Virus record (IMG/VR): IMGVR_UViG_3300029288_005816
Location: 26,755-90,754 of that record
DNA: 64,000 bases
Source: a virus
Lineage: Duplodnaviria; Caudoviricetes
Direction: 5' to 3' (one strand)
Shown: one piece after another, positions 27,667-36,883 of the stretch
How positions within the stretch are numbered: the first letter of the stretch is position 1
Layout: each line of letters starts with the position of its first letter
The notes under the pieces: model-generated
What the model saw: the letters and a program-made list of their open reading frames with translations, nothing else
Told to the model about the DNA's origin: nothing
Database searches by the model: none
Made by a program: the position numbers and the translations under genes

Positions 27667-28677
27667 TTAAATTTGACAATCATAAATACTTAACATGGTA
27701 TCATCTGGAATTTCATCAAGTAAATTTTTAAATTCTTTATTCCAATCTTTGGGTTCTTTTTCATTAGATACAAATTTCCACCAGCCCATTTCCCCTTTTT
27801 CATACCATTTTCCGTCTTTTACTACAGCAAAAGTAGAGATAGACGCATGCTTATCTAAAAAAACTTCTCTTCCATCTAATTTTTCTTCTATATAACTATG
27901 ATAAGACTTATTTTGATTCTTTTCTGAATTTTTCTTAAGTTCTTCATATAAATTAATAGCTTCTTCTAATTTTTCTTCATACATTGCATCAAAATCAATG
28001 TTCATTTTAAAAGCCCTATCAGCTGTTCCAGACTTTGCAGAATGTATAATAAAACATTGTGTTCTAAGCATCCCTGGCTTTAATTTAAAATATCCAGAAT
28101 AACTTCCTCCTAAATTGGCACAATTCCATTTTGCATTTTTATTTAAATAATATCCAAATCTGCCATTTTTTTCTTCATATCCTTCATATTTTTTTGCATA
28201 TTCCTCAAATGTTCTATATTTATTTTTAAGTGGGATTTGTTTAGGACATGCTATTCTTTTGATTCTAATTTTGCCTTCAAAACAAACATTCTTATCTGGA
28301 TGTGTTGTTTCTATAATTGATAAAACTTTAAACCAGTAATATCCTTTTATTTCTTTTTTAATGCCTGGAATATAATAATATCCTCTATAACATCCATTTT
28401 TTTTATAATATGAGCCAAGACTTAATCTTTTAATGTCTTGGTCAAACTCATTTCCAATTTTAGTATTTGAAAGTTTTTTATAAAATTCTTTCGTTATTTC
28501 CATTCCTGATTCATTATAAGAGGAACACCAAAATTCTCTAATTTTTTTTGTTTTATAATCTTTTACCGCTTCTTCAGTTTTATCAATGAATTGTATATAT
28601 TTTTTATTCTTTTCATCATATGGTGCAAGTTGCTCTTCAGGATTTTTTCCTATCACTAAAACACTAAAATTTGACAT
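27667..28677 (-). CDS. Hypothetical phage protein
   Basis: 336 aa ORF, FSVLVIG.NPEEQLAPYDE...YDCQI. Confidence 0.7.
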   Translation of the reverse strand: MSNFSVLVIGKNPEEQLAPYDEKNKKYIQFIDKTEEAVKDYKTKKIREFWCSSYNESGMEITKEFYKKLSNTKIGNEFDQDIKRLSLGSYYKKNGCYRGYYYIPGIKKEIKGYYWFKVLSIIETTHPDKNVCFEGKIRIKRIACPKQIPLKNKYRTFEEYAKKYEGYEEKNGRFGYYLNKNAKWNCANLGGSYSGYFKLKPGMLRTQCFIIHSAKSGTADRAFKMNIDFDAMYEEKLEEAINLYEELKKNSEKNQNKSYHSYIEEKLDGREVFLDKHASISTFAVVKDGKWYEKGEMGWWKFVSNEKEPKDWNKEFKNLLDEIPDDTMLSIYDCQI

Positions 28678-28985: not shown

Positions 28986-30137
28986 ATGGAAAAATTAACA
29001 ACAAAAGAGTTTATTGAAAAAGCTCAAAAAATTCATGGAGATAAATTTGATTACTCATTGGTTAAATATGTAAACAACAAAATAAAAGTAAAAATTATTT
29101 GCAAAGAGCACGGAGAGTTTGAACAACAACCGTCAACTCATTTACTGGGTCGTAGCGGATGTAAAAAATGCCATATAAATTCAATACGTAGCAATACGGA
29201 AGAATTTATACAAAAAGCGAAAGATATTCATGGAGATAAGTGTGATTATTCATTGGTCGAATATGTTGGTAGCAAAGTAAAAGTAAAAATAATTTGTAAA
29301 GAACACGGGATATTTGAGCAAACTCCAGTCATGCACATGGCAGGACAAAATTGCCCCAAATGTTCAATAGCTGCTAAATTTACTCAAAAGAAATTCGTAG
29401 AAAAAGCAAAAGCCATTCACGGAGATAAATATGATTATTCAGAAACTATATATAATGGAGCAGAACATAGTGTAAAAATATTTTGTAAAAAATGTAATAA
29501 TACTTTTGTACAGGTCGCATCTTCCCATATGAAAGGATGGGGATGTAATGAATGTTCAAAAAAAGCCCACACATTATCTGTAGAAGAATTTATTAACAGA
29601 GCCATTAAAAAACATGGTGATAAATATGATTATTCGAGTGTTAACTATAAAAGAATGGATGTTAAAGTTGATATTTTTTGTAAAAAATGCAAAAAATATT
29701 TTCAACAAACTCCGCACAATCATATGTTTTATGGATGTAAGAATTGCTCTTCTTCCGACGAGTCAAAAGGAGAAAAAGAAATAAAAAATTTTTTGGAAAA
29801 ATTAAACATTTCATTTATACAACAAAAAATGTTTGATGATTGTAAAAATATAAATAAATTGCCCTTTGATTTCTACTTACCACATTTTAACACGTGTATA
29901 GAATTTGATGGAAAGCAACACTTTAAACCCATTGGACATTGGGGCGGTGAAGATGGGTTAAAATCTATACAAAAAAGAGATAAAATAAAAACAGAATATT
30001 GTAAATTAAACAATATTCCACTTATTAGGATTTCTTATAAAGATAATATTGAATATATTTTAAATAAGACGCTTCAAAATTTCGGCTGTCATCCTGGCGT
30101 CATCGACTCCACGATGCATAACACCATCAAATTCTAA
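28986..30137 (+). CDS. Free-standing endonuclease: DUF723-type repeats + Vsr/DUF559-like nuclease
   Basis: Repeats HGDKYDYS...KVKIICKEHG; PFDFYL...IEFDGKQHF; paralog of 12091-13209. Confidence 0.82.
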   Translation: MEKLTTKEFIEKAQKIHGDKFDYSLVKYVNNKIKVKIICKEHGEFEQQPSTHLLGRSGCKKCHINSIRSNTEEFIQKAKDIHGDKCDYSLVEYVGSKVKVKIICKEHGIFEQTPVMHMAGQNCPKCSIAAKFTQKKFVEKAKAIHGDKYDYSETIYNGAEHSVKIFCKKCNNTFVQVASSHMKGWGCNECSKKAHTLSVEEFINRAIKKHGDKYDYSSVNYKRMDVKVDIFCKKCKKYFQQTPHNHMFYGCKNCSSSDESKGEKEIKNFLEKLNISFIQQKMFDDCKNINKLPFDFYLPHFNTCIEFDGKQHFKPIGHWGGEDGLKSIQKRDKIKTEYCKLNNIPLIRISYKDNIEYILNKTLQNFGCHPGVIDSTMHNTIKF

Positions 30138-30608
30138 ACCCAACTGCTTAAGTGCATTTGATACACTTGTAGATGTCTTTTCTCCTCTTTTAAAAGCATA
30201 CCATTCTTTAAGGTTAAAATGTGTTTTTCCAAAGGGATATTTTATTTTTTTTTCATAACATTCTGATTCTAAAATAATTCTATCATAGTCTCCCCAACTA
30301 AACCACATGCGTCGGTCACTTTGATACTCATCGACCAAAATTTTGCATGCCTTCTTAAAAGATATTCCTTCTTTATCTACTAATTCTTGGGTGATGGTAG
30401 TTAACTTTGTGCAAAACGGACTTATTTCGGAAAACTGCGGTTTAATAATTATGCTTCTTGACCCTATTGTTTCTTTTGAAAAATAGTCGACTTGTGCGAT
30501 ACCGATTTCAATTATTTCTTTTGACATTCCTACTGGAATTGGCGACATCCAACAGCAAGCCTCGACATCAATTACTAAAACGAAAGTGTTAATTTTTTCT
30601 TTTCTCAT
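30060..30608 (-). CDS. DEDDh 3'-5' exonuclease (KapD/ERI1-like)
   Basis: VIDVEA, EIIEIG, SWGDYD, HRGVDDA. Confidence 0.88.
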   Translation of the reverse strand: MRKEKINTFVLVIDVEACCWMSPIPVGMSKEIIEIGIAQVDYFSKETIGSRSIIIKPQFSEISPFCTKLTTITQELVDKEGISFKKACKILVDEYQSDRRMWFSWGDYDRIILESECYEKKIKYPFGKTHFNLKEWYAFKRGEKTSTSVSNALKQLGLEFDGVMHRGVDDARMTAEILKRLI

Positions 30609-31182
30609 AAACTTTTATATATTTTGGAGGTACTTCATCTGTAAGATAAACATTGTTATCTGTCTTATAAAATTTATATCCCTCATTGCACATTTGTTTT
30701 GCTTCTATCACCAATACTACTGATTCAACACCTTTTTGGTGTCTTGACCCTGTGTCTTTTGCTTTATTCATATTTTCTTCTGAATATAAATGAACATGAT
30801 GTCTATTCATTTTTTTAAGCCCTTCTTTCATAATAGAAGGCATAAATCTTGGAGCTGTGCCATGATATAATTTAAATGGAGGAATAATAGCTGATAATTG
30901 CAAATCCACTTCTATTGAGTGCCCCTGATTTGCTTTTATAAGCTTTTTATCATCACTAAATTTAAATCTTTGTTTATCAGAAGTTTTTACAACTTCTTCT
31001 AAATCTTCAAATGTGAATTCTATTTTGTTTTGAGATTTTTTTATAAGTAAATCTACATCTGCCCATCCATTTTTATCCAATATTATTCCAATAGAAGATG
31101 GATTGTGCCGCAACACATAAGATAAGTGTTTGCTAATTTTTGTTATTTTTTCTTTATAAATCATAATGGCAAAAATACACAA
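30589..31182 (-). CDS. kptA: RNA 2'-phosphotransferase (Tpt1/KptA)
   Basis: SKHLSYVLRH, DKQRF, ANQGHS, LYHGT, RHHVHL; likely start 31164. Confidence 0.93.
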   Translation of the reverse strand: MCIFAIMIYKEKITKISKHLSYVLRHNPSSIGIILDKNGWADVDLLIKKSQNKIEFTFEDLEEVVKTSDKQRFKFSDDKKLIKANQGHSIEVDLQLSAIIPPFKLYHGTAPRFMPSIMKEGLKKMNRHHVHLYSEENMNKAKDTGSRHQKGVESVVLVIEAKQMCNEGYKFYKTDNNVYLTDEVPPKYIKVYEKRKN

Positions 31183-31204
31183 AAATTATTAAATAAAAAA
31201 ATTT

Positions 31205-31432
31205 TTAAGATATAAAATGATTATATAAGCCAATCGGATTTTGATTTGGTGCCAAACCAGAAACTTGCCCAGTTGCATCTTTTTTAGTATTCTTAATAAT
31301 AGAACAGTCAATATTAATATCTTCAGAAATACTCTCTCCATTAATAGAAATTTGTTTATTCTTTAGTCTAGCTTTGATATCCTGGCTAAATAATCCTTGT
31401 TGTTTTAATATTTCTGATAATTTTATTAACAT
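31205..31432 (-). CDS. Small hypothetical protein, weak S4-like N-terminus
   Basis: 75 aa ORF. Confidence 0.45.
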   Translation of the reverse strand: MLIKLSEILKQQGLFSQDIKARLKNKQISINGESISEDINIDCSIIKNTKKDATGQVSGLAPNQNPIGLYNHFIS

Positions 31433-31447
31433 ATATCTTGGTTTAAT

Positions 31448-31633
31448 TTAAAATGGTAACATTTCTTTTTTATAAAAAGTCAATTGTTTCATTTTATTTA
31501 AAGTAATAAATTTTTTATTCATCCAATAACCTTTTGTGTAATTTAAAATAGTTAATTTAATTTGCCTACCAAATTTAGAATATAATTTTTTATTTTCGAA
31601 ATAATACCCTTGAAACTCTTTTATAAAAACCAT
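31448..31633 (-). CDS. Small hypothetical protein
   Basis: 61 aa ORF. Confidence 0.5.
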   Translation of the reverse strand: MVFIKEFQGYYFENKKLYSKFGRQIKLTILNYTKGYWMNKKFITLNKMKQLTFYKKEMLPF

Positions 31634-31710
31634 ATTCTATACTTTAAAATTATGATAATTAACACAATAAGATATAGACTAAAGTGCGATTATCCACGAG
31701 TTATGTGCCA

Positions 31711-31965
31711 TTAACCGATAACATCGTGAATTGACGGCACTCTTGGTAATAGCTTCCGCATCAATGAGAAAAAACTTCTGTATTCCTCAATCTGCTTTTC
31801 CTGTTGTTGAAGTTTGCTTTCCAAATCAACTATGTGTTTGTGTGCCAAAAACCATTCATTCAATTTACCACTTTCGTCTTTTGAAGTAATGTGTTTTTTT
31901 AATTCAGCATACTTGTCGGCACACTCTTTTTTCCCCATTGCTGCTCCGTGGTCATAATAAGCCAT
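31711..31965 (-). CDS. Cassette-borne hypothetical protein
   Basis: 84 aa; flanked by GTTATGTGCCGTTAA and TTAATGGCACATAAC. Confidence 0.65.
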   Translation of the reverse strand: MAYYDHGAAMGKKECADKYAELKKHITSKDESGKLNEWFLAHKHIVDLESKLQQQEKQIEEYRSFFSLMRKLLPRVPSIHDVIG

Positions 31966-31985
31966 ATCTTTCTAAGTTTAACGGC

Positions 31986-32082
31986 ACATAACAAGGTATA
32001 TATGTTATACGCCAATGAAGTGTCGTACTTAATTTTAAAACTTTATGGTCAGGCGTACAACACATATACCCAACCGTTATAG
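31986..32082 (-). repeat. attC-like site
   Basis: CTATAAC-GGTT-GGGTATATGTG...CATATATACC-TT-GTTATGT. Confidence 0.75.
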
Positions 32083-32099
32083 GTAATAAAATTTACTAC

Positions 32100-32324
32100 C
32101 TACATTCCAATACTTTCATCATATTTAAAGCTAATCAATATAATCGGTAAAAAAACAATTATTATTACCGTCCAAAAAATTAACAATATACCCATCATCC
32201 CACCAATGAAATATTTACCAAATAACGTAAATTCCATTTCATCAATGAACTCAAAAAACATACTTTTCCAATAATGTTTGATAATGTTCCAACTTCGTAA
32301 TAATTGTTTTTTTATAAATTTCAT
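32100..32324 (-). CDS. Cassette-borne small membrane protein
   Basis: 74 aa with one TM segment. Confidence 0.6.
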   Translation of the reverse strand: MKFIKKQLLRSWNIIKHYWKSMFFEFIDEMEFTLFGKYFIGGMMGILLIFWTVIIIVFLPIILISFKYDESIGM

Positions 32325-32344
32325 AACCCGTAAATTTTACATAC

Positions 32345-32440
32345 CTATAACAAAGTGTATAAGTAATGTGGCTAAATTAATTTATCTATAAGTTGAAAGT
32401 ATGTGCAAAGCCACACTACTCATACACTCAACCGTTAGTA
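32345..32440 (-). repeat. attC-like site
   Basis: TACTAAC-GGTT-GAGTGTATGAGTAGTGTGGCT...AGCCACATTACTTATACACTT-T-GTTATAG. Confidence 0.78.
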
Positions 32441-32446
32441 GTAATT

Positions 32447-32653
32447 TTATTTACAATCAAATTTACTATCAAACCACTTATTAAAGTCCTCATATACGCT
32501 ATTTTCGCCATCCTCACCATAATCAGCGCCTAATTGAACTCCTGCTGAAAATGCTCTTTGCAAATCATCCTTAGTAAAACTACTACTAACATCAGATATA
32601 TTCAATTTTTTATCTGAGTCATCAACTCCTATGTTTTTATTTACATCTTTCAT
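32447..32653 (-). CDS. Cassette-borne hypothetical protein, starts inside the upstream attC-like loop
   Basis: 68 aa; LNISDVSSS is encoded across the GTTAGTA box. Confidence 0.6.
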   Translation of the reverse strand: MKDVNKNIGVDDSDKKLNISDVSSSFTKDDLQRAFSAGVQLGADYGEDGENSVYEDFNKWFDSKFDCK

Positions 32654-32710
32654 TTTATTTAATTTTTGTGTTATTAATTAAGAAAACTGAATATATCTGT
32701 AACCGTTATA
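32584..32710 (-). repeat. attC-like site containing a gene start
   Basis: TATAAC-GGTTA-CAGATATATTCAGTTTT...AAAATTGAATATATCTG-AT-GTTAGTA (17-bp arm). Confidence 0.78.
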
Positions 32711-32726
32711 AAACATTAAAACGATT

Positions 32727-32860
32727 TTATAACAAAGTATATAAATAATGGTGATGTGGAGTCGAACCACCTACTCGAAGTCTCACCTGAAATTTAGGAC
32801 TCGAACCTACTACTCGAAGTCTCACCGAACCACCACTATTCATATACTCAACCGTTATAA
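32727..32860 (-). repeat. attC-like site with internal 26-bp direct repeats
   Basis: TATAAC-GGTT-GAGTATATGAATAGTGGTG...CACCATTATTTATATACTT-T-GTTATAA; repeats at 32762-32787 and 32801-32826. Confidence 0.78.
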
Positions 32861-33169
32861 TCAAAACTTCCTCCAGTCTAAATATTGTAGCTTTATCTCA
32901 TTTGAGAAAAATTTAATGTCATTATCATAATCTTTTCGATTTCTTGAATCCCAAATTAAAACACCACCAGTTATAATAATACCATTTACCATTAATCTAT
33001 CTCCCTTAACAATTTCAATCTGTAAGCCATTAAATTTTTCTCTTAAACGAGTTCGTATTTCCAATTGATATTCCGTCAATTTATCCGTACTGATTATAAC
33101 ATCAGATATAACCAATTTAGGTTTCTGTGATTTAATCAAGTTAAGTTTTTCTAATAATCTTTTTATCAT
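32861..33169 (-). CDS. Cassette-borne hypothetical protein, starts inside the attC-like loop
   Basis: 102 aa; LVISDVII crosses the GTTATAATCA box. Confidence 0.62.
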   Translation of the reverse strand: MIKRLLEKLNLIKSQKPKLVISDVIISTDKLTEYQLEIRTRLREKFNGLQIEIVKGDRLMVNGIIITGGVLIWDSRNRKDYDNDIKFFSNEIKLQYLDWRKF

Positions 33170-33225
33170 ATTTTAAGTTTTTGTATTTCAATTCCTAAAC
33201 TGGTTATATCTGAGAACCGTTAGCA
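33094..33225 (-). repeat. attC-like site containing a gene start
   Basis: GCTAAC-GGTTCT-CAGATATAACCAGTTTAGG...CCTAAATTGGTTATATCTG-AT-GTTATAA (19-bp arm). Confidence 0.78.
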
Positions 33226-33459
33226 ACAATGTTTTATGACCATAACACTTCCATATAAACCAACCGCCTCAGTAAGCATACTTTTAAAAAGCCTACATTC
33301 GTTGCTATTATAGCCTTTTTTTGCTACATAATTATCTAGTTTTTGTTGAAAGTCATCAGGCAATTGACTTTTTAAAAATTCCTGTGCATCTTTCCAAAAA
33401 TCAACACTGTTGCTAACATCACGTATAGCACATTGCTGTTTGTTCTTCGTATTTTTCAT
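33220..33459 (-). CDS. Cassette-borne hypothetical protein, starts inside the attC-like loop
   Basis: 79 aa; CAIRDVSNS crosses the GTTAGCA box. Confidence 0.6.
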   Translation of the reverse strand: MKNTKNKQQCAIRDVSNSVDFWKDAQEFLKSQLPDDFQQKLDNYVAKKGYNSNECRLFKSMLTEAVGLYGSVMVIKHCC

Positions 33460-33535
33460 CGTAAATAATTTTTAAGTTTGTAATTCTAATTAAGTTATAC
33501 ATAAACAACGTTCCATACACGCAGCCATTATAGGT
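33411..33535 (-). repeat. Degenerate attC-like site containing a gene start
   Basis: CTATAAT-GGCT-GCGTGTATGG...CTATACGTG-AT-GTTAGCA. Confidence 0.6.
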
Positions 33536-33543
33536 AATAAAAT

Positions 33544-33735
33544 TTACTTGCCATAAATCTTTGTTAAACCTTCTTGTTCTCTTTTAGATTTACATTTATC
33601 ACAATATTTCATCGTCCAAGCAGTTCCCTTGCTTTGAATAAGCCATTCACTTGTTGCTTTTTTTCCACAATTACATTTTCCGTGCATCATATCCGTAAAT
33701 TTTACATACCTATTACGACCAACCGTTATAAACAA
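33544..33735 (-). CDS. Cassette-borne small Cys-containing protein
   Basis: CNCG...YCDKC; true start probably the internal MMHGK. Confidence 0.55.
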   Translation of the reverse strand: MFITVGRNRYVKFTDMMHGKCNCGKKATSEWLIQSKGTAWTMKYCDKCKSKREQEGLTKIYGK

Positions 33736-33998
33736 GTTTGTTTAATTCTTTCAATTTCACTTTTCATCATTTGTTGTGGCGTATGATATTTTTCACAAAT
33801 TTCACATTGCCAAGTGCCAGACCCAACAAAAGCAACTGGAATACCACAGCAAATTCCAGCGAAAAAATCTAATTTATCATTCGTGTCACAAACCTGGTTT
33901 ATAATACCAAATAAACTCAATAAAAAGTTTTGTGCTTCTATTTCAGTTATACAACCTTGTTCAAGGTCTTTTGCTATTTTTAATATTTGTTCTTTCAT
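33726..33998 (-). CDS. Cassette-borne hypothetical protein, starts inside the attC-like loop
   Basis: 90 aa, CC...CEIC. Confidence 0.6.
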   Translation of the reverse strand: MKEQILKIAKDLEQGCITEIEAQNFLLSLFGIINQVCDTNDKLDFFAGICCGIPVAFVGSGTWQCEICEKYHTPQQMMKSEIERIKQTCL

Positions 33999-34031
33999 AT
34001 CTTTTACTGTGTTTATTTGTAACTATTAGAC
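33898..34031 (-). repeat. Degenerate attC-like site containing a gene start
   Basis: GTCTAAT-AGTT-ACAAATAAACACAGTAAAAG...CTTTTTATTGAGTTTATTTG-GT-ATTATAA. Confidence 0.6.
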
Positions 34032-34040
34032 ACAATACTA

Positions 34041-34223
34041 CTATACTTTTTTATAGATTGAGTTAAAATCCCTATCAGAAATGAATTGTCTTTTGCCTCT
34101 GTATAAGTAAAATATCAAATCAGTTCCTCTTTGTTTATTAGTTCCCTTTTTTATGTTATATTCATTTCCTGTTTGGATATTTTTATATCTTCCAAATTCT
34201 CTGATGTTACTAAGTTTTTCCAT
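34041..34223 (-). CDS. Small hypothetical protein
   Basis: 60 aa ORF. Confidence 0.55.
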   Translation of the reverse strand: MEKLSNIREFGRYKNIQTGNEYNIKKGTNKQRGTDLIFYLYRGKRQFISDRDFNSIYKKV

Positions 34224-34265
34224 AATTTACAGTATTGCGCCAATTAATATAAATATCAAAAATGC

Positions 34266-34442
34266 TTATAATACACTTTTTTTAAATTTATACATTTCAT
34301 GGTTATGAAATTCATATTCCATTCTTTTATAGTCTTTAAATAAACTTTTTACTTCTCTTACTTCTAAACACTTGAATTTCCTAATACAATTTCCATAATA
34401 GTAAAATTGCCCTATTTCTAAATCATTTATAGTTAAACCCAT
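34266..34442 (-). CDS. Small hypothetical protein
   Basis: Not in the ORF track; MGLTINDLEIGQFYYYG... 58 aa, fills the gap. Confidence 0.5.
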   Translation of the reverse strand: MGLTINDLEIGQFYYYGNCIRKFKCLEVREVKSLFKDYKRMEYEFHNHEMYKFKKSVL

Positions 34443-34474
34443 ATATTTAAGTATTTTAAAATTTTCTAGTATAA

Positions 34475-34756
34475 TTATAGCATTACTTTATATACCAACA
34501 TTGTGTCTGAAAAATGAGACCTGTTTCCATCTATTAGCCTGAAAGCATTTTCAAAGACGCCTTCCCACTCTGTTGGAATTGGTTCTGTCTTTTTAAAAAC
34601 ATAAGCTCCCTTACGAAATCCTCCATGTCCACTATCATCTCCATCTATTGGAAAATCTACAAAATGTTCGTATACTTTTAATTCTCCGAACGTTAATGGC
34701 TTCGACATTGTAGTTCTAGCCAGCACATTTTTATTGGACTCTTTATTTTTTTTCAT
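34475..34756 (-). CDS. Hypothetical protein
   Basis: 93 aa ORF. Confidence 0.6.
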   Translation of the reverse strand: MKKNKESNKNVLARTTMSKPLTFGELKVYEHFVDFPIDGDDSGHGGFRKGAYVFKKTEPIPTEWEGVFENAFRLIDGNRSHFSDTMLVYKVML

Positions 34757-34779
34757 TGTTATATTTTATAATAATTTTA

Positions 34780-34965
34780 TTAAATATATCGTACAATTTT
34801 ATCTTTTTCTCCATTAAGAGCATTTTTGGCATATTCTTCAGCTTGTACAACCATCCTGTCCATGCAAGTTTTTTTATCTTCGCATCCATATGTGTTTGAG
34901 ACCAGCCTTAATGCTTCTTTTATGGATTCAAGTTGAAATTTATAAATAGTTATTTTTTCCATCAT
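34780..34965 (-). CDS. Small hypothetical protein
   Basis: 61 aa ORF. Confidence 0.55.
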   Translation of the reverse strand: MMEKITIYKFQLESIKEALRLVSNTYGCEDKKTCMDRMVVQAEEYAKNALNGEKDKIVRYI

Positions 34966-34973
34966 TATTTATT

Positions 34974-35291
34974 TTATGCAAGCAATTCAAAATCGTACAT
35001 GACCCCATTTCCAACGTATGACAAACAAACATAATCATTATCATTCCAGATGTCAATTTCATATCTCAACTCTTCATCATTCCAATCAAATGACCCAATT
35101 AATTCTTTGTGTTCATGAAGTTCTCTCATAAATTTAAATTTGAAACGTTGCCCTTCCTTTATTGACTTTCCATTTTTGTCTTCCCTTACAATGGTAAGTT
35201 GTTCTATTTTTGTCTCTAAATCATTAATTGTTTCAGTGCATTCGATGTATTTTCCACCGATTTTTGCATATACTTTACCTTTGTATTCCAT
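34974..35291 (-). CDS. Hypothetical protein
   Basis: 105 aa ORF. Confidence 0.6.
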   Translation of the reverse strand: MEYKGKVYAKIGGKYIECTETINDLETKIEQLTIVREDKNGKSIKEGQRFKFKFMRELHEHKELIGSFDWNDEELRYEIDIWNDNDYVCLSYVGNGVMYDFELLA

Positions 35292-35316
35292 TTTATTGTG
35301 TAAATTTTTATTTAAT

Positions 35317-35344
35317 TATACGTATTTTTTGGCTATTTGTTACA
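35317..35344 (-). promoter_or_regulatory. WAAC-N16-CGTA promoter motif copy
   Basis: TGTAAC-16nt-CGTATA; heads the small-gene/cassette run. Confidence 0.7.
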
Positions 35345-35554
35345 AATTGCATATGTGTTTAAAAACCATTTTGGGTTATTTATTACTTCCTCTTTTGTAA
35401 AATTATACATTTTTAATTTACCTTCAATGACTTCTTCATCAGTCATTGAGTAATAAAAATTGCCATTAATATCTTCTTTAAATATTCTGCCTTTAGGACA
35501 ATTTGGTAACTTCTTTATTAATATTAATTTTCTTTGTTTTTCCATATATTTCAA
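35333..35554 (-). CDS. Small hypothetical protein
   Basis: 73 aa ORF. Confidence 0.55.
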   Translation of the reverse strand: MKYMEKQRKLILIKKLPNCPKGRIFKEDINGNFYYSMTDEEVIEGKLKMYNFTKEEVINNPKWFLNTYAICNK

Positions 35555-35577
35555 AATAAAGTTTATATTACATATTT

Positions 35578-35605
35578 TATACGAAAAATATAAAAAAAAG
35601 TTAAT
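35578..35605 (-). promoter_or_regulatory. WAAC-N16-CGTA promoter motif copy
   Basis: ATTAAC-16nt-CGTATA. Confidence 0.6.
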
Positions 35606-35626
35606 ATTTATAGTAAAGATATTCCC

Positions 35627-35908
35627 ATGAAAAAATTTTTAGAAATAATTAAAAAATATAAAGAAAGAAACTGCAAAACGTTTTTTGGAACTGCATTGCA
35701 AATGCTGATTTTCCACCATATAACCAGATTAATATTCTTTATGATTTTAGCAATAACAGGTGCCTTGGGTATTCAATATGGTGATAGTAGTGCAGTAATA
35801 TGGAATATTCTATTTTATTCTGGATTAATATATTTAGCCATATTTGCTCTATTCGTAATTATTTTCGTTTGCATAATAAATCCAATAAGAAGTTTAAAAG
35901 AAAAATGA
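35627..35908 (+). CDS. Membrane protein
   Basis: 93 aa, two TM segments. Confidence 0.6.
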   Translation: MKKFLEIIKKYKERNCKTFFGTALQMLIFHHITRLIFFMILAITGALGIQYGDSSAVIWNILFYSGLIYLAIFALFVIIFVCIINPIRSLKEK

Positions 35909-36330
35909 TAACTTGTATTATTATTGCCATTTTATTAATAATCGCAGCTATAAGTGATGCTGTAATGGATGTAATATCTTTTAAATTCTATCAGTCAGTA
36001 TTCTCTAAATTTAAAAAACATGAAAATTGGTTTAATCCTTTAATAAGTTGGAAAAATAAATACAAAAATTGTGACCCATCAAAAGGTCCAGCATTCTTAG
36101 GAAGCACAACAGTCTTTTCATGGTTAACAGATGCCTGGCATTTTTTTCAAATGATTATGCTATCATGTTTTAATATTGCCATAGTACTTGGAATAAATTA
36201 TATCTTTTTCTTAAATTACACAATTTGGAGCCTATTTATTATAGATATAATTATGTTTATAATTATAAAATTTTTATATGGATTAATATTTGAAATATTT
36301 TGGAAAAAGATTTTTATAAAAAAGAAATAA
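35905..36330 (+). CDS. Membrane protein
   Basis: Likely start MITCII at 35905 (ATGA overlap); TM-rich. Confidence 0.65.
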   Translation: MITCIIIAILLIIAAISDAVMDVISFKFYQSVFSKFKKHENWFNPLISWKNKYKNCDPSKGPAFLGSTTVFSWLTDAWHFFQMIMLSCFNIAIVLGINYIFFLNYTIWSLFIIDIIMFIIIKFLYGLIFEIFWKKIFIKKK

Positions 36331-36334
36331 AATT

Positions 36335-36883
36335 ATGAAAGAAGATTTAACAAGCGAAAAAGATGCTAAAAAATTAGCAGATAACTTTGAGTCTACAACT
36401 CCTCCAAAAACGACTTACAATATAAAAGATAGATTGGAATACTATAAAGATAGAAAAAATAAAGCATCCGATTTAAATAAAAATCTAATAGATAAAATTA
36501 AAATTAAACATATTGGTAAATTTATTGGCTTGTATAATGTATATGAAGTAAATGGAGATTTAATAAGAACAGACATAGATATTGATTTTGTCAGTGGTGG
36601 TAACCCAGGAAGATATGCTTATGTCCCAGAAGGAGAAATATGGATTGATAGTAATCTTTTGCCAAATGATTTTGCTGCAACAGTTATTCATGAGTTTGTA
36701 GAATGCATGATAATGGAATATAAAGAAAAAAGCTATAATCATTCTCATGATAAAGCTTCTGCACTCGAATTACGATTTAGAAAAAAACATATTAAAGAAG
36801 AAAATCAATCTATAAAAGTAGAATTTGAAAAAGCTAGTGAATTTGTTGTGAATTTTTTAAAGAATAAAAGCTCCAGAAACTAA
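36335..36883 (+). CDS. Hypothetical protein with HExxE...H metal-binding-like motif
   Basis: EIWID...IHEFVE...HSHDKA. Confidence 0.65.
   Translation: MKEDLTSEKDAKKLADNFESTTPPKTTYNIKDRLEYYKDRKNKASDLNKNLIDKIKIKHIGKFIGLYNVYEVNGDLIRTDIDIDFVSGGNPGRYAYVPEGEIWIDSNLLPNDFAATVIHEFVECMIMEYKEKSYNHSHDKASALELRFRKKHIKEENQSIKVEFEKASEFVVNFLKNKSSRN

Follow-up and report, generated by a model that had tools for sequence, protein, structure and literature searches.

An enzyme-less and partly decayed array of probable integron-like cassettes in a large phage

Introduction

Integrons are seen as bacterial devices defined by the integrase IntI. The attC site of an integron lies 3' of a promoterless open reading frame (ORF) that is read from a platform promoter; the choice of strand is governed by extrahelical bases in the L box, and on the bottom strand of attC the crossover falls at the 5' AAC of the folding strand. 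Here we analyze an array of eight small units separated by hairpin sites in a large, AT-rich phage (Duplodnaviria; Caudoviricetes) represented by IMG/VR record IMGVR_UViG_3300029288_005816, a 90.7-kb sequence judged 57% complete, with 11 tRNA genes and several homing endonucleases. The window, whose coordinates are used below unless another source is named, is the right-hand 64 kb of that record (64,000 nucleotides).

Two previously described systems are particularly close. Clusters of attC sites without an integrase (CALINs) have been reported in 17 phages (Qi et al. 2023; PMC9892861), and one of their sites, P12002L_attC1, is short, with the form TAAC-GGCTAC-stem-TCGTTTTAATG-stem-AT-TGTTA (PMC9892861). 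It belongs to exactly the site family found in the window. In gut Bacteroidales, rAID-1 clusters combine an XerD-family recombinase with integron-like intergenic repeats (Ross et al. 2019; 10.1101/471110), and are defined by an XerD-like recombinase with >44% identity to BF9343_RS08045 lying 5' of at least two co-directional low-GC genes (10.1101/471110). The literature that we searched held no paper on the site anatomy, the unit boundary or the reversed cargo orientation described below, or on a link between phage arrays and an Xer-like enzyme.

We consider it likely that the region consists of eight mobile cassettes of an integron-like system common to Bacteroidota (Flavobacteriia-type) and phages. 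As it stands in this record the array is enzyme-less and partly decayed, and it departs from classical integrons in enzyme and in polarity.

Results

The array is real, and its eight units are listed in Table 1 with the names of the five intact sites (S1 to S5). All plausible genes between 34031 and 31700 are on the minus strand. The intact sites, which an earlier note made from the sequence alone had placed correctly, are ~90-128 nt long and read on the minus strand as xxxxxxTAAC-GGTT(N)-stem-loop-stem'-T(T)-GTTAxxxxxx, with stems of 19-25 pairs if G.T is allowed. Folded as single-stranded DNA they give z values of -2.2 to -4.2, and at every one of the five the minus-strand fold is more stable than the plus-strand fold, by 1.8 to 5.1 kcal/mol, which answers the strand-folding check proposed in that note. 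The motif AACCGTTA has 6 copies in the array against 1.04 expected across the whole window, and a structural scan of the 90.7-kb record found strong sites only in the array, with weak matches at the level of shuffled background. Four further sites had been described as degenerate, and they are of unequal quality: the site at 33411-33533 keeps its cores while its fold is lost (z 0.08), that at 33898-34031 has 25-nt arms, 80% complementary, with mutated cores, that at 33713-33728 is a stemless junction whose hairpin has been deleted, and 31657-31705 is no more than the final TAAC junction and lacks a convincing hairpin.

Table 1. Units of the array, with their sites and ORFs, in the order in which the minus strand is read
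Feature	Position	Strand	Details
Whole array	31700..34031	minus	eight units, read 34031 down to 31700
Cassette H	33725..34031	minus	site decayed: arms 34002-34026 and 33901-33925, cores TAAT and ATTA
Cassette H ORF	33726-33998	minus	90 aa; start in loop; stop TAA inside TAAC core
Cassette G	33527..33724	minus	hairpin deleted; junction TAAC/GGTTGG-TC-GTAA at 33713-33728
Cassette G ORF	33544-33693	minus	49 aa, Cys-rich
Cassette F	33219..33526	minus	site 33414-33530: cores kept, fold lost
Cassette F ORF	33220-33459	minus	79 aa; start in former loop; stop TAA inside TAAC core
Cassette E	32854..33218	minus	intact site 33097-33222 (S5), 24-pair stem
Cassette E ORF	32861-33169	minus	102 aa; start in loop; read through 3' arm and GTTA (..ISDV..)
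Cassette D	32705..32853	minus	no ORF; intact site 32730-32857 (S4)
Cassette C	32434..32704	minus	intact site 32587-32708 (S3); ORF 32447-32653, 68 aa, start in loop
Cassette B	32076..32433	minus	intact ~90-nt site 32348-32437 (S2); ORF 32100-32324, 74 aa, hydrophobic
Cassette A	31700..32075	minus	intact ~90-nt site 31989-32079 (S1); ORF 31711-31965, 84 aa
Array end	31657..31703	minus	last TAAC/ junction, no hairpin
The slash after TAAC marks the unit boundary, here and in the text.

The two ends of each unit pair with one another across the gene that they enclose, such that the bases after GTTA are complementary to those before the next TAAC. Among the 11 positions adjoining the 4-nt core, 6-10 are paired in each of the eight units (mean 8.6), versus a mean of 4.1 of 11 in the 56 non-cognate combinations of ends; the earlier claim that cassette ends are complementary within a cassette and differ between cassettes therefore holds. 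The pairing runs to 15 nt with one G.T in cassette A and to ~22 nt with one bulge in cassette B. We surveyed the wider family in 1.05 Mb of fetched IMG/VR contig stretches, which contain 394 structured sites in arrays of up to 18; at least 118 IMG/VR contig stretches contain the 17-mer TAACGGTTGRGTRTATG. With Y denoting the flank after GTTA and X the flank before TAAC, Y of one site pairs with X of the next at 5/6 or better for 188 of 275 consecutive pairs; where spacing is below 300 nt, the count is 110 of 114. The two flanks of one same site, in contrast, pair this well in only 12 of 393. A bacterial isolate, Flavobacterium cheonanense JCM 17069, carries an array of at least 8 sites over at least 21 kb that also obeys this own-end rule. 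Two sites in that array lie 13 kb apart and obey the rule, meaning either a very large unit or missed sites.

Some searches bear on how far these counts reach. A covariance model (R1) built from the ~90-nt sites picks up S1 and S2 but no other site of the window; it misses long-loop sites and is not a general detector. Chance matches dominate a pattern scan of genome contigs at that database size, and only fully structured loci were used. No match to the region was found in cultured phages by megablast, an Rfam search of it gave nothing at E up to 1, and the protein encoded in its flank at 36335-36883 has no relatives in IMG/VR.

The strongest evidence that these units move comes from cultured Flavobacterium phages. 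A 506-bp unit sets phage mumin6-1 apart from mumin6-3; it starts right after one TAAC, begins with the hairpin and ends with the next TAAC, the joints sharing only TAACGTT (7 nt). In mumin6-1, tooticki6-1 and filifjonk9-1, three different methyltransferase units occupy the space between the same two TAAC/ points. The ends of the indels and swaps in cultured phages are exactly TAAC/, with only 4-7 nt of identity, and these events directly prove the TAAC/ unit boundary.

Such exact ends speak to the possibility that the hairpins are regulatory elements of the PeSL (promoter-early stem-loop) type, serving as terminator or processing and expression signals, among which general homologous recombination shuffles genes with no dedicated enzyme. 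The conserved ~90-nt repeats do separate small early-type genes, and the region shows no synteny with the nearest relative; the loops of four units hold ribosome-binding sites and start codons, in contig L273 a different type of hairpin is attached to the body of cassette E, and the mini-circles of T4-type PeSLs are a precedent (PMC2839356). However, PeSL crossovers vary in position, and homologous recombination leaves the unit-specific complementary ends, the fixed G.T positions and the adjacent recombinase gene unexplained. We regard this possibility as improbable.

The sites bear the marks of selection on their structure. In an alignment of 50 distinct ~90-nt sites, TAACG...TGTTA is invariant, with TAAC and GTTA kept in 50/50; compensatory changes affect 18 of 25 stem pairs, and one G.U is constant in 49/50. 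When orientation is set by the GGTT spacer, the non-Watson-Crick stem positions comprise 267 G.T, 5 A.C and 44 other, clustering at stem positions 8 and 13. This excess of G.T over A.C, together with the covariation, means that selection acts on one strand only, the coding strand, while it is single-stranded. The consensus stem has no bulged extrahelical bases; the source of its strand asymmetry is the fixed G.T pairs and an asymmetric internal loop.

Selection on a sense-strand structure with G.U-compatible pairs would also be expected of hairpins acting purely at the RNA level, in RNase III-type processing or stability, with unit ends pairing in the mRNA and mobility incidental. The ~20-pair stems are of RNase III substrate size, for which the processing sites of T7 serve as reference. 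Against this stand the exact gain, loss and replacement of units at the DNA level, which it does not explain; nor does it account for the different ORFs found in identical end frameworks or for the linkage to a recombinase, and no Rfam family matches. A role confined to RNA is very unlikely in our estimate, and the cassette interpretation is retained in what follows.

Flanks shared between contigs indicate which gene a site travels with. Among sites from different contigs, a common downstream flank goes with a common hairpin type in 16% of pairs, compared to 2.9% for a common upstream flank and a baseline of 2.0%. Because hairpin type is tied to the downstream flank, the hairpin belongs to the downstream gene, with the site 5' of its ORF. 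Together with the exact ends in cultured phages, this makes the cassette unit spacer-hairpin-GTTA-Y-ORF-X-TAAC, with the crossover at the 5' AAC of the folding strand. This crossover geometry is that of the attC bottom strand, but the array cargo is encoded on the folding strand, which places the site upstream of its own gene, the reverse of the usual cargo orientation in integrons. The signature of integron cassettes that had been claimed for the locus is thus borne out in anatomy and, within the family, in exact core-bounded gain, loss and replacement, but not in cargo orientation or in the position of the site.

The 90.7-kb record holds no tyrosine recombinase by profile search and no trace of one by tblastn, which extends to the whole record the earlier statement that the window has no integrase. 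Relatives of the array do carry such a gene. In a survey of 29 array-bearing IMG/VR contigs, mostly fragments, 15 have exactly one PF00589 gene, of 264-289 aa, and in 15/15 of these the sites lie upstream of the recombinase gene, on the same strand and within 1.5 kb. The last junction in 9 of 12 examined relatives is a conserved one of the type TAAC/TATNATATAT, reading TAAC/TAT.ATATAT, 50-70 nt before the recombinase start codon, and may be an attI-like site. The junction at 31657..31703 in the window has no match to this motif. In F. cheonanense JCM 17069 a recombinase of the same family lies 1.2 kb from the array (L281-L283; C3:253531-276404). There the gene and the cassette ORFs are convergent, whereas phages have both in the same orientation. 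The nearest relative phage (G001), whose neighbouring Tpt1 protein is 85% identical to that of the source phage, also has a recombinase of this family (63-70% identity), behind GAAC/TAGTATATAT. In metagenomes the family comprises >5,000 clusters at E up to 1e-30.

The array-linked recombinases are 34-91% identical to one another. Their best NCBIfam match is XerA_Arch (169-207 bits, under its 220-bit cut-off), and the nearest solved structure is Pyrococcus XerA (4a8e). The integron-integrase model TIGR02249 gives 151-168 bits against a cut-off of 265, matching in two stretches with positions ~205-239 skipped, and the alignment to VchIntIA (2a3v) stops at residue 181, which together imply that the IntI-defining insertion is absent. 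By these comparisons the array-linked enzyme is an Xer/XerA-like tyrosine recombinase and not IntI.

These data also bear on the suggestion that the sites are classical attC sites, a CALIN served by an IntI of the host, as the earlier note implied and Qi et al. 2023 propose for phage CALINs. The AAC/GTT cores, the size range and the own-end rule do match attC cassettes, and HattCI called the short P12002L site of the same family an attC (PMC9892861 supplement). However, the scores and gaps of the array-adjacent recombinases, the lack of bulged extrahelical bases and the reversed cargo all disagree with it, and of six sites assayed P12002L_attC1 was the one without a verified IntI1 junction (PMC9892861). 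We consider service by a host IntI unlikely. A still weaker candidate is single-strand transposition by an HUH (Y1) transposase of the IS200/IS605 type, which would recognize a hairpin and cut next to a tetranucleotide. Strand-specific hairpins with a fixed 4-nt motif adjacent to the cleavage point are what such a transposase would use, but the 90.7-kb record has no Y1_Tnp (PF01797), the gene recurring beside arrays is a tyrosine recombinase, and the units are chained head to tail instead of each having left and right ends. This makes it extremely unlikely as an explanation of the array, for which a tyrosine recombinase remains our preferred catalyst.

There is no tyrosine recombinase at all in five complete cultured array-bearing phage genomes, namely four Flavobacterium phages (three Muminvirus, one Lillamyvirus) and Polaribacter phage P12002L. 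Since complete array phages lack the enzyme and the Flavobacterium phages among them nevertheless show exact unit changes, the enzyme would have to be supplied in trans. We suggest that supply in trans is the rule for some phages, and it is plausible for the source phage. The earlier expectation of an integron-type recombinase belonging to the phage or its host was sound insofar as a dedicated tyrosine recombinase accompanies arrays elsewhere and complete phages do without one; it erred as to type, the enzyme being Xer/XerA-like.

The cassette proteins yielded nothing above noise with Pfam and PHROGs and belong to no recognisable family. One small co-oriented ORF per unit had been expected, and every ORF is indeed on the minus strand, but cassette D has none and four of the ORFs start inside the loop of the site and read through the 3' arm and GTTA (peptides ..ISDV.., ..IRDV..). 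A methyltransferase of Flavobacterium phage mumin6-1 likewise starts in the loop and reads through the 3' arm and GTTA (..KTDV..). The stop codons of ORFs F (33220-33222) and H (33726-33728) are the TAA of TAAC, such that the recombination core doubles as a translation stop. The promoter that had been placed at 35317 found no support: a minus-strand search for the Bacteroidota -7 motif TAnnTTTG gave no site in the vicinity of 35317, and none in the loops.

Identical ends enclose different genes. The ~22-nt inverted-repeat ends of cassette B surround unrelated ORFs in at least 8 other contigs, and cassette G has the same ~22-nt framework with decayed cores. In cassette D the 29-nt body (32705-32733) forms a mini-hairpin whose cap is TCGTTTTAATG, a loop found throughout the family. 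This fixed 11-nt loop has 88 copies in 63 loci (including L145, L146, L022 and L268, the last being P12002L), and caps both the ~48-nt minimal-site stem and the X/Y stem of ORF-less units such as cassette D, an empty unit thus having the form GTTA-stem-TCGTTTTAATG-stem'-TAAC. Two other phages (loci L145 and L146) have ORF-less units with S4-like loops and an identical 29-nt body directly beside the recombinase gene. The S4 loop (32760-32830, minus strand) contains two tRNA T-arm-like repeats (GGTTCGAGTCC; GGTTCGACTCCAC..CACCA), for which neither ARAGORN nor Rfam gave a call.

Cassette E has homologues in other contigs with 61-90% identity. In L273/L274 the homologue is inside another array, among different neighbours and joined to a leader and hairpin of the S3 type. 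The L279 homologue has a mutated GTTA and forms a fusion with a further ORF. In L275/L277 (3001-3276) the homologue directly follows an RNase T gene and has half a site, keeping the 3' arm, GTTA and leader peptide without the 5' arm; this may be either a fossil cassette or a glimpse of the origin of a unit. Taken together, the homologues show both movement and decay.

Read depth over S1-S4 (31840-32775) rises several-fold in four metagenomes (for example 197 versus ~30 in X2), implying that many other genomes in those samples share these site types. At the repeated hairpins S1 and S2, where depth climbs, the contigs are broken. The joints listed for these contigs have sides of only 20-28 nt and are compatible with repeats or other organisms. 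One joint, 35428>32090 with one extra T, is present in contigs of all four runs; it may stem from a circle or a duplication, or may be an artefact caused by a shared AATTTAC. Elsewhere in the window, an HNH homing-endonuclease gene (28986-30137) and a neighbouring ORF (27667-28677) interrupt an exonuclease gene block that is contiguous in the nearest relative L008.

Discussion

We hypothesize that an excised circle would carry one long folded site, composed of the X/Y stem, the asymmetric internal loop and a 20-pair stem with fixed G.T wobbles. Exchange would take place at TAAC/, on the 5' side of the folding-strand hairpin as in the attC bottom strand, and the catalyst would be a ~265-aa Xer/XerA-like tyrosine recombinase. 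This enzyme might be encoded in the unsequenced 43% of the genome, in the host chromosome or by a co-infecting phage. We infer the single-strand mechanism and the position of cleavage within TAAC, and the array in the source phage may be active at present.

Several observations weigh against this explanation. Contigs from four runs, mapped onto 29500-36500 in search of variants and joints, contained no circles, excision joints or order variants of the window array, contigs being unable to reveal rare forms. Pieces from one groundwater and two landfill samples have the same stretches unchanged, and most of the array is spanned by X2 and X3 pieces that match the window exactly. Variation in content of the kind that the earlier note proposed to look for is seen in cultured Flavobacterium phages, which differ by whole units, but not in the window array. 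The nearest relative has unrelated genes and no array at the syntenic place, synteny stopping at 31270; this also implies that the region varies on a longer time scale. The record lacks a tyrosine recombinase, three of eight units have decayed sites, as fits a partly fossil array, and sense-strand, G.T-rich pairing would equally suit an RNA structure. The different hairpin of the cassette E homologue in L273 and the lack of a complete site in L275/L277 indicate that exchange is not confined to TAAC/. Finally, P12002L_attC1, the only site of the family assayed with IntI1, gave no verified junction (PMC9892861).

The explanation offered earlier for this locus is partly supported, being right in kind and wrong in enzyme, site position and promoter. 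Beyond the window, we lean somewhat toward a broader hypothesis, in which Bacteroidota and their phages, lytic and giant ones included, would share a second class of integron, organised independently of the first. This class would have an XerA-like enzyme without the IntI insertion, sites upstream of the cargo that give translation starts, an empty unit with an 11-nt loop and an enzyme that acts in trans, and the array in the window would be a store of accessory genes exchangeable with host chromosomes. If this is true, a working counterpart that runs on an ordinary Xer-type enzyme, has its cargo in reversed orientation and forms arrays in both lytic and jumbo phages would broaden the definition of integrons, and would provide a site-specific route of gene flow between Bacteroidota chromosomes and viruses. 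The finding of many ORFs in identical end frameworks is relevant to the question of cassette origin. The cargo of cultured relatives includes DNA methyltransferases tied to host range (PMC7077304), and the Muminvirus phages with Flavobacterium sp. LMO6/LMO9 are a tractable test bed. The window alone is of modest value, as one more partly decayed enzyme-less array with cargo of no recognised function.

Of the systems compared, rAID-1 (by layout and description) differs in that the recombinase lies 5' of the co-directional genes, whereas in the phage arrays it is 3' of the array. Its cargo is immunity genes, its setting is chromosomal, and site anatomy, cassette boundaries and phage arrays are undescribed there. 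The PeSLs (PMC2839356, PMC4122927) are alike in that large lytic phages have repeated hairpins on either side of orphan genes within hyperplastic regions, with mini-circles as proposed vehicles. However, they rely on general homologous recombination with variable crossovers, and have no recombinase gene and no unit-specific complementary ends.

Integrons and CALINs are closest. They share with the array single-gene units between imperfect hairpins with AAC/GTT cores, core-adjacent bases that complement each other inside a unit (a classical mark of circular cassettes), selection on one folded strand, and a crossover at AAC on the 5' side of that strand. In both, a tyrosine recombinase with a SAM-like N-terminal domain stands at the array end (here in relatives), and enzyme-less arrays occur. 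In contrast to those of integrons, the array recombinase has no IntI-specific insertion, and its best score is as an XerA-like enzyme. The array sites have two fixed G.T wobbles and an asymmetric internal loop of 4-5 versus 1-2 nt in place of extrahelical bases, the unit ends pair over 10-22 nt as opposed to 7, and the ORF is on the folding strand, with the site 5' of the gene and in some cases containing its start codon. In the sedentary chromosomal integron of Vibrio cholerae, the V. cholerae repeats (VCRs) are one ~120-nt site type on many unrelated ORFs, much as the S2-type site and its 22-nt framework enclose at least 8 ORFs here; the VCRs differ from the array, as do integrons at large, in enzyme and cargo orientation.

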